Of a DNA stretch of 64,000 bases, positions 27,001 to 33,000 are shown one piece after another (within the stretch, counting starts at the first letter, position 1; every line of letters begins with the position of its first letter). Made by a program: the position numbers. The stretch spans positions 32,001 through 96,000 of the forward strand of contig JAWVXD010000002.1 of the NCBI GenBank assembly GCA_033723415.1, written 5' to 3'. The stretch is from Sulfurospirillaceae bacterium. Its GTDB lineage: Bacteria; Campylobacterota; Campylobacteria; Campylobacterales; Sulfurospirillaceae.

Positions 27001-30000
27001 TTTTGGCGGACTAAAAGCTCTGGATGATATATCATTTGAAGTACAAGAAGGAACTATACACGCGCTAATCGGTCCTAACGGAGCCGGGAAGACTACGCTT
27101 GTAAATATGATATCCGGCATATATTCTGTTGAAGAGGGACAAATTTTCTTCAATGATGAAGAGATCACAAATACACCGACCCACAAATTGGTAAGCAAAC
27201 ACATTGTAAGGACATTTCAAAATCTGGAGATCTGTGAAAATATGACCGTAATGGAAAACGTACTTCTTGGTTTCAATATCAATATGAATAAAAGTCTTCT
27301 AAAATGCTCTTTCCAATTTGAATCCATCATAGACGATGAAGAGAAGTTTAAGCACATTGCCTTGTCTCACCTTAAGCGAATAGGACTCGAAGATGTTGCT
27401 TATAAAAAATGTTCTTCCCTCTCTTATGGCGTACTTAAAAAAGTAGAGATCGTCAGAGCTTTAGCCAACAATCCAAAGCTGCTTTTACTAGATGAGCCTG
27501 TTGCCGGATTAAACGGTACGGAAACAGCAGAGATAGCAGAAATCATAAAAGAAATAGCAGCAGAGGGAGTCACAATACTTTTGATCGAACATGATATGAA
27601 AATGATCATGAACATCTCCGATATGATCACGGTGGTAAACTTCGGACAAAAGCTCGCAGAGGGAAAACCAAAAGAGATATCATCTAACCCTGAAGTGATC
27701 AAAGCATATCTGGGAGAAGGATCGTTACATGCAAAAGTCTGATTTATTATTGAAGATTAGTGATCTGGATTGTCATTATGGGCATATTCATGTTTTACAA
27801 AATATAAATATAGAGATCAAAAAAGGTGAGATAGTCGCACTGATCGGTGCAAACGGTGCAGGAAAAACAACTTTGATGAAAACTATCTCAGGACTTAAAA
27901 TACAAAATAAAGGCGATATCATATACAAGGACAATATAGATATCACAAAAACTCTGCCTGAAAAAAGAGTTAAGCTCGGTATCGCTCAAGTTCCTGAGGG
28001 AAGAGAGCTTTTCAAATCAATGAGCGTTTATGACAATCTGATGCTAGGTTCATACACAAGAACAGATAAACTCGGCATACAAGAAGATCTAGATTTTGTA
28101 TATGATAAATTTCCTATACTTTTTGAAAAAAGAGATATAATATCTGGCAATCTCTCAGGGGGACAACAGCAGATGCTTGCAATAGGCAGAGCGCTCATGT
28201 CAAAACCTGATCTTTTATTGATGGATGAACCCTCAATGGGACTGGCACCTGTGATCGTAGAAGAGATATTTGCTTTTATTGAAGAACTTAAGAAAATCCA
28301 CATGACGGTGTTTTTAGTCGAACAAAACTCATACTTTGCCCTCAGCATATCAAACCACGCTTATGTACTAGAAAACGGCGAGATCGTTTTAAGCGGTAAC
28401 TCTGAAGATTTGATCAAAGACAACAGAGTAAAAGAAGCATATTTAGGAATGTAAATGAATTATAAAAATATAATAGTAGAAAAACTACAAAACGGTGTCG
28501 GTGTTATAACGCTCAATAGACCGGAAGCTTACAATGCAATCAACACTTTATTGCTTGAGGAGATATCTAGTGCCATCAAAGACTTTGATGCAGATCCTTT
28601 GATCGGAGCAGTAGTTCTAACAGGTGGAGATAAAGTTTTTGCTGCCGGTGCAGATATAAAAGAGTTGGCAAATCTAGATTTTGCAAGTGCTTACAATAAT
28701 GACTTCGTAAAAAAAGAGTGGTCGGCTTTGGAAAATCATGTCAAACCGATAATTGCAGCGATCAGTGGATATGCATTGGGTGGAGGTTGTGAGATGGCTT
28801 TGTTGTGCGATATCGCTATCTGTGATTGGAGTGCAAAATTCGGACAGCCTGAAGTTAAAATAGGAACGATGCCAGGAGCCGGCGGGACTCAAAGATTGAC
28901 CAAAGCAGTAGGAAAATCAAAAGCTATGCATATGTGTCTCACAGGCGATATGATAGATGCCAAAGAGGCAGAGTATTACAAACTTGTCTCAAAAATAGTA
29001 GATCATGATGTTATGAAAGAAGCTATAAAGATAGCAGAAAAGATTGCTTCCATGTCAAAGCCCGTCGTGAAACTGATCAAAGAGTCTATAAACAATGCAT
29101 ATGAATCAAATCTGCAAGCCGGATTGGTAGCTGAGCGACAATCTTTTTATGCAACATTGGCTCTTGAAGACAGGATCGAAGGTATGAATGCTTTTATCGA
29201 AAAAAGAAAAGCAAACTTTAAAAACTAACAATATATCTTTTAGAAAAAATAATACAAAAAATATAGCTATCATAAAAAAATAGTATAGCTATATTTTAAA
29301 ATAAATATCATTTTTATTAAAAATAAGCTTATCTCCCAAGAATAGAGACTACTATGACCAATAATCAATTCTAAAATGAACTTAAACAGTTCTAAATATC
29401 TAACTTTTTAAGCCCTTATTAAAATATATATGATACAATAATATTTAATTTACTAAAATAATTGAAGTATATTTTCAATAACTAAACAAGGAGCACTAAA
29501 TGTCAAGCAGAGAAAAACTTGCCGGAACAATGGAATTTCCACCGCCTACTGAGCAGCCAAATGTTTACCCGCTAAGCTGGGTTAATAAAACAATGAAACT
29601 GCAAGAAATCTGGGATGCTTCTCAAAGAGAATACTGGGATCCTGCAAAACTGCCTTGGGATACTTTTGATGTATCCAAATACAGTTGGGAACAGAGGGAA
29701 TCTATAGCCTATTGGTGGACAATTCTTTCTGTATTTGACGCTTCTGCGCCTCCTGTATTTGCATCTGCCCTTATCAAGACTTATGAATTACATGAAGAAG
29801 ATCTAGTTAGAAGATGTTTTTTTTCTGTTACAAGAGATGAGCAAAATCACGAACAAATGTGTGGTATGGCTATTACAAAATTACTAGAACATCCGGATCC
29901 TATAACCTATACACCTAAAACAGATATCGGTAAAAGACTCCAAAAAAATGCAAAATGGTTATATTACAATGGAGGAAGATATTGGGATGGTTTTAAACAC

Positions 30001-33000
30001 GCAGTTCCAAAATACTCACTTGCAGTTCTTTTTTCATCATTTTTGATGGGTGAGATCGCAGCTGCGACAATATTCCACCAAATGTCAGCAGGATGCAGTG
30101 AGCTGGTATTTAAAGAAGGTTTTAAGAAAATAGGTATGGATGAAGGTAGACATATGGCTATCATATTGACACTTATGGAGAGAGATTATCCAAAACTGAA
30201 CAATGAAGATAAAGCAACTATAACCAAACAGATAAGAGCCGGTTACTTATTTCTCTCTGCCGTTTTGTTTGAGCCGCCTGAAGATTTTTGGGATATCCCA
30301 TCAGACTTTATCGCCAATCAAAGAGAAGGTGAAGCATTTGCCAGAGAAGCAGGTTTTCACATCCCTGAGTATGAAGCAAAAAAAGAAAATTGGAAAAATG
30401 CGATGCTTAATCTAAAAGGCGTCCTAGATAAATACGATACAGAATTCCCGGCAATTCCAGAAGTAGGAATCACCGGTAAAGAGATCACGGATATCGATAT
30501 GGAAGATATCATCCCTGTATTTTAAAAATTTAGTTATAGGTCAAAGATCATGAAAAAAATAATTATACAGCCATCGGGCAAATCGATTGATTGCCCGGAT
30601 GGAGAATCAGTACTTTCCGTATTGGAAAAACAAGGTTACGCACTACCTAATAACTGTAGAGCTGGTGCTTGCGGAGAGTGTAAAATAAAAGTTTTAAGTG
30701 GTACCTTTGACCAAGGTTTTGTTATGGATATGGCTCTGTCACAAGCTGATAGAGCTGCCGGTTTCGGCTTGATGTGCATGGCAAAACCAACTTCTGAAGT
30801 TTTAGAAATAGAATTTGGAACAGAAGATGCCAAGCCAAAACTATTTCCACCTGTTGAAAATTCTTGGCATATCGTCACAGACAAGATACAAAGAACAGAT
30901 AAGATACTGGAATTAAAACTTGCTCCTTTAGGTCAATCAATCAAATTTTGGCCAGGTCAATATGCGATGATAGGAGACGGAACAGCTGAACATCCATTGC
31001 GACCATACTCAATCGCAAATGCTCCAAAACAAAATGGAGAATTGAGCTTTTTTATCACAAAAGAAGAAGGCGGCAAAACAAGTCCTTGGATACATGATGA
31101 AGTAAATATTGGAGACAATATCAAAGTCAACGCTCCTTATGGAACATTTCTGGGAGATCCAAGCGTGAATACACCAATACTTTGTCTGGCTTCGGGAAGT
31201 GGTTTAGCACCCATACTTTCTTTGTTAAATGCATATCTAAGCAGAGGACACAAAAATCCTGTAACTCTTTTGTTTTCAGCCAAAACGAAAAAGGACCTCT
31301 TGCATTTTGGTAAGATAAAATATTTAGAGTCAAAATATGTCAACTTCAAATACAAATATACACTTACACAAGAAAGCAACAAAGAGGGAGGACTGGAAGG
31401 CAGGATAAGTACAGTTTTACCTAATCTTATACCAAATCTAGCAAACTATTCTATCTATATCGCCGGTGGAGTTTCCTTTGTGGAATCTTGTAAAAAGACT
31501 GTAGAAGCCCTTGGAGCAGAAGAAAATCTGATCCATATGGAAGAGTACTTTGCACAACAAGTGCAGTAGCGGATTACTTTAATCCGCCAAATCTGTTAAA
31601 ATAGAACTTATCTAACTTTGGATTGTTACCTCCGACTGTCAGCAAATTCTCTTTTATATATTCATTTGCCTGGTTATGAATAGCAGCGTAAACAGAATCA
31701 ACCAAAGATGCGGCAGCTTTCCCAAGCCAATCTATCGAAACCAGTTCATTTCCTAGTTTAGGATCATATAAAAGTGCCCTTCTGTACTCATGGATCAACA
31801 ATATTCTCAACATAAAACACTGCTTCGTAGTAAATTCATCAATCGGTGTTTTAAGTGCAAATATTTTTCTAAATTTCGTGATAAAACTCTGATATCTCTC
31901 TTCAACGTCTTTTAAATCCCAAAAGATATTTGCCATATCTTTCAAAATCTCCTTATTCATAGGCATATCCGCAGTTCCGTTTATAAGTAAAACATCATTT
32001 TGCAATTCATACTTGATCAAGATATCCTGCATATACTCCATCTTATAATTCGGGTGAAGATAAGTAAATTTTGATTGTGATGCAAAACCCTCTTTTTTCA
32101 GGATCTTTGAAAGCTCCAATTCTTTATCCGGCTTAAGAGCATTTGTAAATAGTACGATCCAATTATTTTCATCATCTTGTTCATCATATGCATAAACACT
32201 GTAATGAGCTTTAACAAACCTATCTATCGCGTAATTGCTAAGTGAATAGTAGCTCTCTCTACCAAATTTCTTAGAACTCAGCCAACCCTCTTTTGTAAGT
32301 CTAAATATAGATGTTCTTGTCAGTTTTTCACTGATATCAAACTCTTCCATAAACTTTACCAAAGAACCTAGCCATATAGTGCCCCCATAAGGGAAAACAG
32401 TATCACCGAAAAATGTGATTATCAAAGACTTTGCTTTTGGAGATATCTCTGCCAATAATGATTCTAGATATTCATCAACTTCATTTGAAGGATTATGGTT
32501 TTTCAATTTCATTCCTAATTTTGTTTATTAAAATAATATTTTATCAAAGTTTTCAAAAAAGCATCATAAATAAGGCAACCTTGCTATTGAAAATAGGTTT
32601 GATCGAAATTTTTTGCATCACTTTTTTGAATATACTCAGAAACATCCAGACCACAAATATTTTCTATGATCTTGCCTTCCTTTGCATCCCACAGCAAACC
32701 TCTGGTAATAAACTCCAAAGTAGGTTCACTGTATCTTCTTGTACAATCTAGGAACTCTAATATATCGGTATGTATCGTATCTAGTTTTGTCACAAGATAA
32801 AAATCACCTAATGAAAAAATATTATGATGATGCAAGCAATACTCAAAACTATCCATGCCCTCATAGATCAAGGCCGTATCCCAGAAATACAACGCATCTT
32901 TGTAAATTTTGATTTGCAAAAAACCGTGTATCAGGATATGCCCATCAAGCTTATCGATCTCTCTTGCAAGATATAATATATCACCAATATTTAATTTTTT

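Follow-up and report, generated by a model that had tools for sequence, protein, structure and literature searches.

A diiron protein and its linked reductase as a candidate phenylacetyl-CoA ring oxygenase in a Sulfurospirillaceae paa cluster

The paa gene cluster

The window, i.e., the whole 64,000-nucleotide stretch of DNA that was analysed, contains a phenylacetate (paa) cluster with the gene order IorA/B, LivHMGF, enoyl-CoA hydratase, DIOX, RED, PaaX, a 200-aa open reading frame without assignment, PaaK, PaaJ, PaaI, PaaH, PaaG, PaaF, PaaN, PaaY and LivJ. DIOX (29500–30525, plus strand, 341 aa) is the proposed catalytic oxygenase subunit, a ferritin-like (R2-like) diiron-carboxylate protein, and RED (30550–31569, plus strand, 339 aa) is its proposed electron donor. 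DIOX is preceded by an AAGGAG ribosome-binding site at 29488–29493. An earlier note on this DNA had described the two open reading frames and the full set of PaaK, J, I, H, G, F, N, Y and X genes with an importer around them, and both were recovered here.

The paaK-paaJ-paaI-paaH-paaG-paaF operon (33190–39237, minus strand) encodes a ligase (PaaK, 622.9 bits), a thiolase (670 bits), a thioesterase (PaaI, 136.6 bits), a dehydrogenase (PaaH, 559 bits), an epoxide isomerase (PaaG, 338.5 bits) and a hydratase (PaaF, 312 bits). It is followed on the plus strand (39402–41653) by paaN, of the ring-opening aldehyde dehydrogenase type (TIGR02288, 715 bits, cut-off 578.75), and paaY (249.9 bits). The PaaX regulator (31574–32512, minus strand) is convergent with RED and has PaaX and PaaX_C domains; its TIGR02277 score of 234.9 bits is just below the cut-off of 264.55.

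The LivHMGF-type ABC importer (25157–28454, plus strand; Pfam BPD_transp_2 twice, ABC_tran twice, Peripla_BP_6) and its binding protein LivJ (41730–42875, minus strand) are likely an uptake system for aromatic acids. The indolepyruvate:ferredoxin oxidoreductase IorA/IorB (20493–22858, minus strand; TIGR03336 IOR_alpha 586.6 bits, POR domain) is a possible source of phenylacetyl-CoA for the pathway, made from phenylpyruvate. Immediately upstream of the pair lies a 257-aa enoyl-CoA hydratase (28455–29228, plus strand; ECH_1, 8.2e-77), the third crotonase of the cluster. Its NCBIfam scores, all below cut-off (PRK05862 352 bits, PaaF 287, oxepin_alt 170), make it a candidate oxepin-CoA hydrolase or PaaF-type hydratase.

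Just 3′ of the hydratase gene, an inverted repeat ATATAGCTAT-N14-ATAGCTATAT followed by a T-run (29261–29294, plus strand) is likely a terminator that divides the Liv-hydratase operon from DIOX-RED. The arms ATATAGCTAT and ATAGCTATAT vary in a paired fashion in nine aligned upstream regions. Further downstream, the block TTAAAAT..TGATACAAT (29420–29439, plus strand) contains an extended −10 element (TG at 29431–29432, TACAAT at 29434–29439). It is conserved upstream of DIOX in the window and in eight Campylobacterota loci while the flanks diverge, and may be the DIOX-RED unit's own promoter.

The diiron protein DIOX

AurF is the only Pfam match of DIOX (E 0.0067, 16.1 bits, cut-off 29.6), the NCBIfam search gave no match, and a sequence search of the PDB gave nothing significant (best E 0.24). 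Two ligand motifs, E96...D113-E114-x-x-H117 and E185...D214-E215-x-x-H218, hold across 22 aligned relatives with identities as low as 22%. The AF2 model is all-helical (pLDDT 88.4) and its best fold matches are R2lox (Z 19.3) and RNR R2 (18.6), followed by PaaAC-type chains (14.9–15.9), AurF (14.6), BoxB (13.8) and CmlI (13.7). The ferritin/R2-like fold is common to PaaA, BoxB, AurF and MMOH, and the fold search did not place DIOX specially close to PaaA or BoxB. Homologues with 73–97% identity occur in records from Campylobacterota, Alpha-, Beta- and Gammaproteobacteria, Bdellovibrio-type bacteria and Actinomycetota.

The names of these homologues in the source records include “rubrerythrin” and “ferritin-like domain-containing protein”. 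Together with the ferritin-like fold, such names would fit a protein that handles peroxide, oxygen or iron and has no organic substrate. This is very improbable, since DIOX has neither a rubredoxin domain nor a match to Pfam Rubrerythrin, is far bigger than ferritins with its 341 aa and R2-like architecture, is strictly linked to an oxygenase-type NAD(P)H:2Fe-2S reductase, and is tied to paa genomes (see below).

The reductase RED

The N-terminal part of RED is a plant-type 2Fe-2S ferredoxin domain, and behind it lie domains that bind FAD and NAD(P) (Pfam Fer2 5–81, FAD_binding_6 112–200, NAD_binding_1 213–315). The top NCBIfam models all score below cut-off (BenC 162 bits, MmoC 140, PaaE 133). 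The PaaE model (cut-off 420.8) covers the FNR part only and the BoxA model matches weakly (28 bits). Cys36, Cys41, Cys44 and Cys76, R151-x-Y153-S154 and G216-x-G218 are the same in all 31 sequences compared, and the cofactor motifs of RED are those of oxygenase reductases. The features that the earlier note had ascribed to the two proteins, namely a Fer2-FAD-NAD reductase next to a widely and highly conserved protein outside the Pfam and NCBIfam families with two diiron motifs and a ferritin-like fold, are thus borne out.

Gene neighbourhoods in related loci

In 79 of 80 related loci a RED-like gene lies 3′ of DIOX on the same strand, and in the remaining one (L046) the contig end cuts RED. 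PaaX is the commonest paa neighbour and is found within 10 kb of the pair in 29 of the 80 loci; in E. coli, PaaX responds to phenylacetyl-CoA as its effector. PaaG, PaaI and PaaY are each near the pair in 16 loci, PaaK and PaaJ in 15 each and PaaF in 10, while Liv importer genes adjoin it in 31–39. All Campylobacterota paa clusters seen, i.e., those of the genome analysed here, of a second genome of the same genus (G704) and of eight further loci, contain DIOX-RED and lack PaaA/C.

In four Comamonadaceae loci the pair is directly upstream of paaABCDE in a single operon. A Comamonas MAG shows the order paaN on the minus strand, then paaG, paaI, paaK, DIOX, RED, paaA, paaB, paaC, paaD, paaE and, further on, paaJ. 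The comparative counts of the earlier note were reproduced on these loci, as was its Comamonas order as far as paaE, and so was its caveat that no paa gene lies within 10 kb in about half of the loci.

The neighbours at the latter loci are unrelated housekeeping genes, and those at annotated stand-alone loci are heterogeneous. The pair might therefore have a different substrate, for instance a small molecule or some other acyl- or aryl-CoA, with a paa link that is circumstantial and reflects versatile hosts. A 33%-identical relative, whose neighbours are TetR regulators, an SDR, a crotonase and a Liv-type importer but no reductase or paa genes, also points this way, as does the 73–97% conservation across phyla, a level seldom seen in peripheral catabolic enzymes. 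PaaX as the commonest neighbour and the uniform Campylobacterota clusters argue against it, and the genome counts below make another substrate improbable.

Co-occurrence with the paa pathway

The genome analysed here (17 contigs) is 100% complete, and searches of it with PF05138 (PaaA/C, E≤1), PF06243 (PaaB) and BoxB TIGR03225 gave no matches. The same pattern is seen in G704, a single contig with a 97% identical DIOX and without PF05138.

Among 50 genomes with DIOX, 39 have PaaN_2 and three more have PaaZ, so that 42 have a ring-opening dehydrogenase; PaaG was found at E≤1e-98 in 43. The background rate of PaaN_2 was 14/401 in Pseudomonadota and 3/401 in Campylobacterota genomes. Six DIOX genomes (G030–G034 and G036) have no PaaN or PaaZ at the thresholds used, and two more, G035 and G041, which lack PaaA/C, PaaN and PaaZ and have only a weak PaaG, are the hosts without a clear paa pathway that would fit another substrate. 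All eight are MAGs without a completeness figure. In the order sample PaaG occurs in 56 of 201 genomes. With the centre genome left out, DIOX is present in 4 of 55 PaaG-positive and in 0 of 145 PaaG-negative genomes. Contrasts of small counts, here and below, are rough, as related genomes are not independent.

The samples unselected for DIOX contain seven PaaN_2-positive genomes without canonical PaaA/C. Five of these have DIOX (G101, G162, G221, G704 and G1029), which adjoins paaN in the first three, and the other two (G379 and G490) have a divergent PaaA-like gene inside the operon, so that none lacks both alternatives. The same samples include 15 PaaN_2-positive genomes that do have canonical PaaA/C, and DIOX was found in none of them. 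Both oxygenases are missing from 17 PaaG-positive genomes, and so are PaaN_2 and PaaZ. PaaG-positive genomes of the order sample lacked PaaA/C no more often with DIOX than without it; the signal is visible only with PaaN or PaaZ as marker.

Canonical PaaA/C is absent from 20 of the 42 DIOX genomes with PaaN or PaaZ, as the earlier note had seen in a few genomes beyond this one, and present alongside the pair in the other 22, so its caveat on coexistence stands. “Replacement” is therefore true for only part of the hosts, and coexistence, including the shared operon in four Comamonadaceae loci, leaves simple redundancy unexplained. Hosts with and without PaaA are intermixed on the DIOX tree, where well-supported branches force at least five changes. 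This suggests that DIOX probably does the same job in both kinds of host.

Phenylacetate-growing strains without paaABCD

Two strains have been described that grow aerobically on phenylacetate and express paa proteins with oxygen, and in which paaABCD is absent and only a “paaE” is kept (Carlström et al., 2015, PMC4453571). In both strains one locus tag is skipped between “paaE” and paaZ (PMC4453571, Table S1). In L046, a locus of a related Chromatiales MAG, the order is paaZ-DIOX-RED, with DIOX at the place of the unlisted gene, and a Sedimenticola-labelled record contains a DIOX homologue with 83% identity. Judged by gene order, the unlisted gene would be DIOX.

That study also describes a homogentisate-type cluster as prominent in the phenylacetate-oxygen proteomes (PMC4453571). 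The pair could oxygenate phenylacetyl-CoA or a close aryl-acetyl-CoA with another outcome, e.g., ring hydroxylation towards a hydroxyphenylacetate/homogentisate-type route or side-chain (alpha) oxidation, as an accessory branch and not the entry step. The coexistence with PaaABCDE, also within one operon, would agree with this, as would the varied chemistry of the fold relatives AurF, acyl-ACP desaturase and ADO, and one annotated Azospirillum locus (L047) where the genes close to the pair include an HgmA_N-like dioxygenase, an FAA hydrolase, a MarR regulator and a large FAD monooxygenase. We nevertheless consider it unlikely. DIOX-only genomes retain PaaG and PaaN or PaaZ, which require a ring epoxide or oxepin, and their clusters share no other oxygenase. 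HgmA_C was found in none of the five DIOX-only genomes searched, including the one analysed here, and the mixed DIOX tree speaks for one function.

Proposed function

The earlier note's proposal of a paa-pathway oxygenase is supported, and the paa link survived all computational tests run against it and was strengthened by several new observations. DIOX and RED are the strongest candidate for the ring-attack enzyme that has long been missing in bacteria whose paa cluster lacks the usual five-part one. We favour, with a probability of roughly 60%, a two-component phenylacetyl-CoA ring 1,2-epoxidase that is non-orthologous to PaaABCDE. The data show the gene content, the motifs, the fold class, the strict coupling of DIOX with RED and their co-occurrence with the pathway across genomes, whereas substrate, electron path and regiochemistry (1,2-epoxidation) are what we infer.

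As an NAD(P)H- and O2-dependent diiron oxygenase acting on phenylacetyl-CoA, the pair would work as follows. RED would pass two electrons from NAD(P)H via FAD and its own 2Fe-2S centre to the diiron site of DIOX, which once reduced would activate O2 and insert one oxygen atom into the ring. The product would most likely be the ring 1,2-epoxide, which PaaG would isomerise to oxepin-CoA before a crotonase and PaaN (PaaZ in other hosts) open and oxidise the ring. In the genome analysed here and about half of the hosts, DIOX-RED would do the work of PaaABC(D)E as a non-orthologous enzyme; in the remaining hosts it would be a second enzyme next to PaaABCDE.

Comparison with known systems

DIOX-RED occupies the same place in gene clusters as PaaABC(D)E, whose catalytic subunit is PaaA (PF05138), and would occupy the same place in the pathway. 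Both belong to the diiron-carboxylate superfamily and are fed by an FNR-type reductase with a 2Fe-2S centre. DIOX is, however, outside PF05138 by sequence, is structurally closer to R2lox and RNR R2 than to PaaA, and is a single oxygenase gene in contrast to A+B+C(+D). RED differs from PaaE in its N-terminal ferredoxin domain, which the PaaE model does not cover.

R2lox and class I RNR R2, the top fold matches, align over ≈260 residues (rmsd 3.4–3.8) but with only 9–10% identity, and DIOX has a dedicated reductase and no RNR context. The arylamine N-oxygenases AurF and CmlI (PF11583), the sole Pfam family with a sequence signal in DIOX, are likewise single-subunit diiron oxygenases of aromatic substrates, yet the signal is below the cut-off and the gene context differs.

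The benzoyl-CoA 2,3-epoxidase BoxAB is a two-component aryl-CoA ring epoxidase made up of a diiron oxygenase and one reductase. BoxB is longer (≈470 aa), belongs to a family absent from this genome and matches DIOX in fold at Z 13.8 only, and BoxA is a 4Fe-4S-type reductase. In architecture, BoxAB is the closest analogy to DIOX-RED.

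The diiron protein DIOX

The open reading frame of DIOX, a ferritin-like diiron protein of 341 aa inside the phenylacetate (paa) cluster, is found at positions 29500–30525 (+). It is preceded by a good ribosome-binding site and runs in the same direction as that of the reductase RED. The sole Pfam signal for DIOX is AurF (PF11583; E 0.0067, 16.1 bits vs. a gathering cut-off of 29.6), and some of its homologs carry a precomputed PF11583 label. The Pfam profile search gave no PF05138 (PaaA_PaaC) match at E ≤ 0.01, the NCBIfam profiles gave none at all, and a sequence search of the PDB returned nothing significant. 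Across 22 aligned relatives with sequence identities down to 22%, the residues E96, D113-E114-x-x-H117, E185, and D214-E215-x-x-H218 are all conserved, and these two motif sets are the predicted halves of a diiron-carboxylate site.

The AlphaFold model of DIOX is all-helical (pLDDT 88.4). A wide fold search with VIA-align against ≈48,000 solved chains matched it to R2-like ligand-binding oxidase (R2lox, Z 19.3), RNR R2 (Z 18.6), an aldehyde-deformylating-oxygenase-like protein (Z 18.6), MMOH (Z 15.9), PaaAC-type chains (Z 14.9–15.9), AurF (Z 14.6), and BoxB (Z 13.8). This search placed DIOX in a fold class and no specific nearest family emerged. Foldseek against the PDB gave generic R2 matches alone (E > 0.001), and an Atlas look-up gave only clusters named "ferritin-like". 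With a four-helix-bundle core and two E...(D/E)ExxH motifs, DIOX belongs to the ferritin-like diiron-carboxylate oxygenase superfamily. As it matches the whole ferritin-like diiron class, it is a new branch of this known superfamily, with no special closeness to PaaA.

The C-terminal tail of DIOX (...IIPVF, residues 337–341, positions 30508–30522) is kept even in relatives of 30% identity, where it is hydrophobic and usually ends in F. The last residues have low model confidence, and the tail is reminiscent of the partner-docking tails of R2 proteins. Complex prediction for DIOX and RED with alignments as input scored 0.01 and gave no answer.

The reductase RED

RED (339 aa, positions 30550–31569, +) is encoded directly downstream of DIOX and in the same direction. 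It has an N-terminal plant-type 2Fe-2S domain (Fer2, residues 5–81) followed by FAD- and then NAD-binding domains, and aligns end to end with oxygenase reductases of the BenC/MmoC type (residues 11–335 for the BenC model), scoring below the equivalog cut-offs. The cluster Cys residues and the RxYS and GxG motifs (flavin and NAD) are invariant in 31 sequences. RED is thus a member of the oxygenase-coupled Fer2-FNR reductases (BenC/MmoC type). The PaaE profile TIGR02160 covered only the flavin part (residues 126–335; 132.7 bits, cut-off 420.8), and the BoxA profile gave 28.1 bits against a cut-off of 459. At one Arcobacter-type MAG locus (L003:11068–12084) RED stops at codon 325 of ∼339, a sign of either C-terminal truncation or faulty assembly.

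The paa cluster and its transcription signals

The cluster around the pair holds a complete phenylacetate set: IorAB, a Liv-type ABC importer, three crotonases, PaaX, PaaK, PaaJ, PaaI, PaaH, PaaN, and PaaY. One of the crotonases is PaaG (338 bits) and one is PaaF-like, while PaaN scores 715 bits, above its cut-off. IorAB could supply phenylacetyl-CoA from phenylpyruvate.

Judged by its flanking sequence, the DIOX-RED pair appears to be a transcription unit of its own. A hairpin with paired arm changes is found 3′ of the upstream hydratase gene, and an extended −10 block, TGATACAAT, is kept in nine Campylobacterota upstream regions. A search for PaaX operators in the window returned only AT-rich shared words. 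The 11-mer TAAAATATATA occurs four times in the window (positions 29420–29430, 39353–39363, 43203–43213, and also 13632–13642) vs. 0.33 expected from whole-window shuffles, which understate chance in AT-rich spacers. Three of the copies lie upstream of paa units, namely in front of DIOX, within the paaF/paaN spacer, and in the spacer preceding livJ. The word may belong to a common promoter or operator, or be a chance occurrence in AT-rich spacers. A search of sequencing runs found one full holder, which may be the source sample, one partial holder and one metatranscriptome at a share of 0.05, and nothing usable for expression.

Two further genes are placed between IorAB and the Liv importer: a 261-aa open reading frame of no family (positions 22869–23654, −) and, divergent from it, a 382-aa pyridine-nucleotide-disulfide oxidoreductase (23825–24973, +). 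Among the 80 best loci with DIOX relatives they were seen in six and five, respectively, all in Campylobacterota paa clusters. A 200-aa open reading frame (32584–33186, −) between paaX and paaK has relatives of 45–49% identity in five Arcobacter-type loci. It had no Pfam or NCBIfam matches, the Atlas look-up found nothing, and its Atlas model was poor.

Spread and conservation of the DIOX family

Conservation of DIOX across phyla, as claimed in the earlier note, was borne out: homologs with 73–97% identity are present in Campylobacterota, several proteobacterial classes, Bdellovibrio-type bacteria and Actinomycetota records. The family is small and isolated. Among 1.84 billion representatives only 223 clusters (50% identity) match DIOX at E ≤ 0.001, mostly fragments, and a relative is encoded on 285 stretches of the species-genome collection.

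Neighbors within 10 kb were counted for the best 80 of these 285 loci. RED adjoins DIOX in all 80; the 79 pairs previously claimed were recovered by tblastn, and in the remaining locus RED is truncated by the contig end. The other neighbor counts of the earlier note were reproduced as well, with PaaX in 29 of the 80 loci, PaaK and PaaJ in 15 each, and PaaG, PaaI, and PaaY in 16 each. Liv genes were found in 31–39. In approximately half of the loci no paa gene is among the neighbors, and unrelated genes surround DIOX wherever such loci were annotated.

DIOX is far better kept than its partner RED and the remaining paa enzymes. Over the 80 loci DIOX has 73–91% identity across phyla, and outside Campylobacterota RED is 50–60% identical. 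When the window is compared with a Rhodocyclaceae locus (L016), identity is 79% for DIOX, 55% for RED, 65% for PaaJ, 59% for PaaK, 49% for PaaG, 46% for PaaI, and 44% for PaaN.

In a MAG labeled Stygiobacter (Ignavibacteriota; L032) with the layout Liv-DIOX-RED, DIOX is nested in a Magnetospirillum-type clade (support 100/88), reflecting either a recent transfer or a mis-binned contig. For the distant members, one protein used as query led to three metagenome loci, of which only L099 was long enough to annotate. Here (L099:572–9665) a 33%-identical DIOX relative follows a LivJHMGF importer, lies between two TetR regulators, and has an SDR and a crotonase after it, with no reductase adjoining it. 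Members of the wider family may act in other CoA-ester pathways.

Known oxygenases and paa markers in DIOX genomes

The earlier note had stated that PaaA, PaaB, and PaaC are missing from the source genome, which is 100% complete by marker genes. Six-frame searches agree, with zero matches to PF05138 (covering PaaA and PaaC; E ≤ 1) and to PF06243 (PaaB). BoxB (TIGR03225) was likewise without a match in the six-frame search.

We then tested 50 of the 80 genomes, a set that spans all major groups and 3 of the 17 Azospirillum-type loci and omits several MAGs with short contigs. Canonical PaaA/C was present in 28, absent from 20, and represented by a weak match only in two. PaaG was detected in 43 (E ≤ 1e-98) and the ring-opening dehydrogenase PaaN_2 in 39, and PaaZ was found in three more of the PaaN_2-negative genomes. 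Neither dehydrogenase was detected at the thresholds used in the remaining eight, all of them MAGs and six of them with PaaA/C. Among the 42 genomes with a ring-opening dehydrogenase, 20 have no canonical PaaA/C. These hosts with DIOX only are eight Campylobacterota (all those tested), four Magnetospirillum-type and five Rhodocyclaceae or Zoogloeaceae genomes, one Chromatiales MAG, Rhodobium orientis, and Azospirillum isscasi. The homogentisate route found no support in such hosts, as HgmA_C was present in none of the five tested.

The other 22 of the 42 hosts carry DIOX and PaaABCDE together, in four Comamonadaceae loci within one operon. This coexistence counts against the proposed role, and our boldest guess to account for it is a low-oxygen isoenzyme. 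Two DIOX-bearing MAGs with no visible paa pathway and the many stand-alone loci count against it as well. When 51 DIOX sequences are placed on a maximum-likelihood tree, the label "genome has PaaA/C" has to change at least seven times, five of these changes being forced by well-supported branches, and no separate replacement clade is seen. As the label is intermixed in this way, DIOX probably does the same thing in hosts with and without PaaA/C.

Control samples

A sample of 201 genomes from the order around one host was searched for PaaG (E ≤ 1e-90), with the centre genome excluded from contrasts. PaaG was found in 56. Of the 55 that are left without the centre genome, 20 have no canonical PaaA/C, and only three of these have DIOX, a result that, taken alone, looked unfavorable to the replacement idea at first. 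The remaining 17, of the order Burkholderiales (G060, G061, G071, G088, G105, G111, G112, G121, G155, G164, G174, G193, G201, G224, G230, G235, and G237), were also without any PaaN_2 or PaaZ match, which places their PaaG-like gene outside the ring-epoxide pathway. It scores above the curated PaaG cut-off in 11 of them and is grouped with PaaI, PaaY, PaaK, or a crotonase in ten loci examined. At one of these ten loci (L081) the PaaG-like gene is adjoined by an FAD monooxygenase and an FAA hydrolase. These PaaG-type isomerases evidently serve another pathway, and since both dehydrogenases are missing from all 17 oxygenase-less genomes, PaaG was no longer used to mark the ring-epoxide pathway.

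The three order-sample genomes with DIOX only all have PaaN_2, and their DIOX is divergent from or adjoins paaN-paaG, as in the layout paaJ-K-I-H-G-N(−) / DIOX RED LivHMGF(+) of L096. DIOX occurs in 4/55 PaaG-positive vs. 0/145 PaaG-negative genomes (exact test ∼0.005, calculated by hand and with kin that are not independent).

PaaN_2 was found in 14 of 401 genomes of a Pseudomonadota sample. Eleven of these were further PaaN_2 genomes, nine with canonical PaaA/C and none of those nine with DIOX. The other two (G379 and G490) have neither canonical PaaA/C nor DIOX, only a divergent PaaA-like gene (L094:8813–9529, −; L095:10459–11175, +) with a PF05138 E-value of ∼1e-21 to 1e-26 and 24–25% identity to a PaaA. 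It stands in an operon paaK-J-I-H-G-F-[PaaA-like] divergent from paaN and may represent a third kind of entry oxygenase. In a Campylobacterota sample, PaaN_2 was found in 3/401 genomes: the source genome, a single-contig genome of the same genus (DIOX 97% identical, no PF05138), and one Arcobacter-type genome already tested. PaaA/C, DIOX, or the PaaA-like gene was present in every PaaN-positive genome examined.

Weak PF05138 matches (E ∼1e-22) in several Burkholderiales were considered as hidden PaaA and ruled out by the context of the two annotated loci, L091:5426–10136 and L093:5324–9928, which are not paa loci. Here a 270-aa PaaA-like protein (E 1e-21 to 5e-24) is encoded next to a Fer2-FNR reductase, a cupin dioxygenase, and an FAA hydrolase, which looks like a two-component PaaA-like hydroxylase feeding gentisate-type ring cleavage.

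Published physiology

According to Carlström et al. (2015; PMC4453571), their strains carry paaZ, F, G, H, J, and K and a "paaE" and no paaABCD, and expressed the paa proteins mainly with phenylacetate and oxygen. One PaaABCD-less strain oxidized phenylacetate at 1% O2. In their Table S1 the locus tags of paaE and paaZ differ by two in each of the two strains, and the intervening genes (CUZ_04216 and NSS_00036180) are unlisted. A Chromatiales MAG (L046) has the layout paaH-G-F(−) / paaZ (1028 bits)-DIOX-RED, and a record labeled Sedimenticola contains a DIOX homolog of 83% identity. We infer that the unlisted gene would be DIOX and the "paaE" RED. No paper naming the DIOX family or assigning the missing epoxidase was found in a literature search covering sources other than subscription journals. 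A 2026 pathway survey chose paa contexts by PaaA/PaaC (PMC13186573), so that hosts with DIOX only would be invisible to such surveys.

Proposed mechanism and significance

We consider it somewhat probable (roughly 60%) that DIOX and RED form a two-component phenylacetyl-CoA ring 1,2-epoxidase that is non-orthologous to PaaABCDE. RED would draw electrons from NAD(P)H into its FAD and on to its 2Fe-2S cluster, and would hand them over to the DIOX diiron site. Once reduced, this site would activate O2 and add one oxygen atom to the phenylacetyl-CoA ring, producing the 1,2-epoxide. The cofactor sites and the DIOX-RED pairing are evident from sequence. Both co-occurrence and the PaaX linkage favor phenylacetyl-CoA as the substrate. 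The putative 1,2 regiochemistry is what PaaG and PaaN or PaaZ would require.

A bolder version, which we find unlikely, is that the pair is a minimal two-gene phenylacetyl-CoA ring epoxidase that originated in the R2-like branch of diiron proteins, independently of PaaABCDE, and is specialized for low oxygen. This version would explain why the hosts are, by record titles, largely microaerophiles or denitrifiers (Sulfurospirillum, Arcobacter, Magnetospirillum, Azospirillum, Rhodocyclaceae, and Sedimenticola-type) and why many of them retain DIOX alongside PaaABCDE. It would also explain the oxidation of phenylacetate at 1% O2 reported for the PaaABCD-less strain (PMC4453571). One DIOX chain would then do the work of three to four subunits in PaaABCD, and the extreme conservation of DIOX would come from the tight constraints that this places on a lone polypeptide.

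Phenylalanine, styrene, ethylbenzene, and related aromatics share a central route in the phenylacetyl-CoA pathway, for which PaaABCDE serves as the genomic marker. If true, an epoxidase of only two genes, belonging to a new diiron family, would account for the missing epoxidase of paaABCD-less strains, and pathway predictions would be corrected for genomes of Campylobacterota, Magnetospirillum-type bacteria, Rhodocyclaceae, and Chromatiales. Compared with the five-subunit enzyme, it would also offer enzymologists a far simpler way to study arene epoxidation of CoA thioesters.

Comparison with known systems

Unlike the catalytic subunit of PaaABC(D)E, DIOX falls outside PF05138, and the accessory PaaB (PF06243) and PaaC (PF05138) of that system are missing from the source genome. 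PaaE has the FNR module first and the 2Fe-2S domain last, whereas RED starts with Fer2 (residues 5–81) and stays below the TIGR02160 cut-off. The BoxAB system consists of BoxB (TIGR03225) and BoxA; BoxB is missing from the source genome, DIOX has no NCBIfam match, and RED stays below the BoxA cut-off. DIOX also differs from the AurF-like N-oxygenases, since its 16.1 bits do not reach the PF11583 cut-off of 29.6. For DIOX, 1,2-epoxidation of phenylacetyl-CoA, the PaaABC(D)E reaction, is proposed from pathway logic and co-occurrence.
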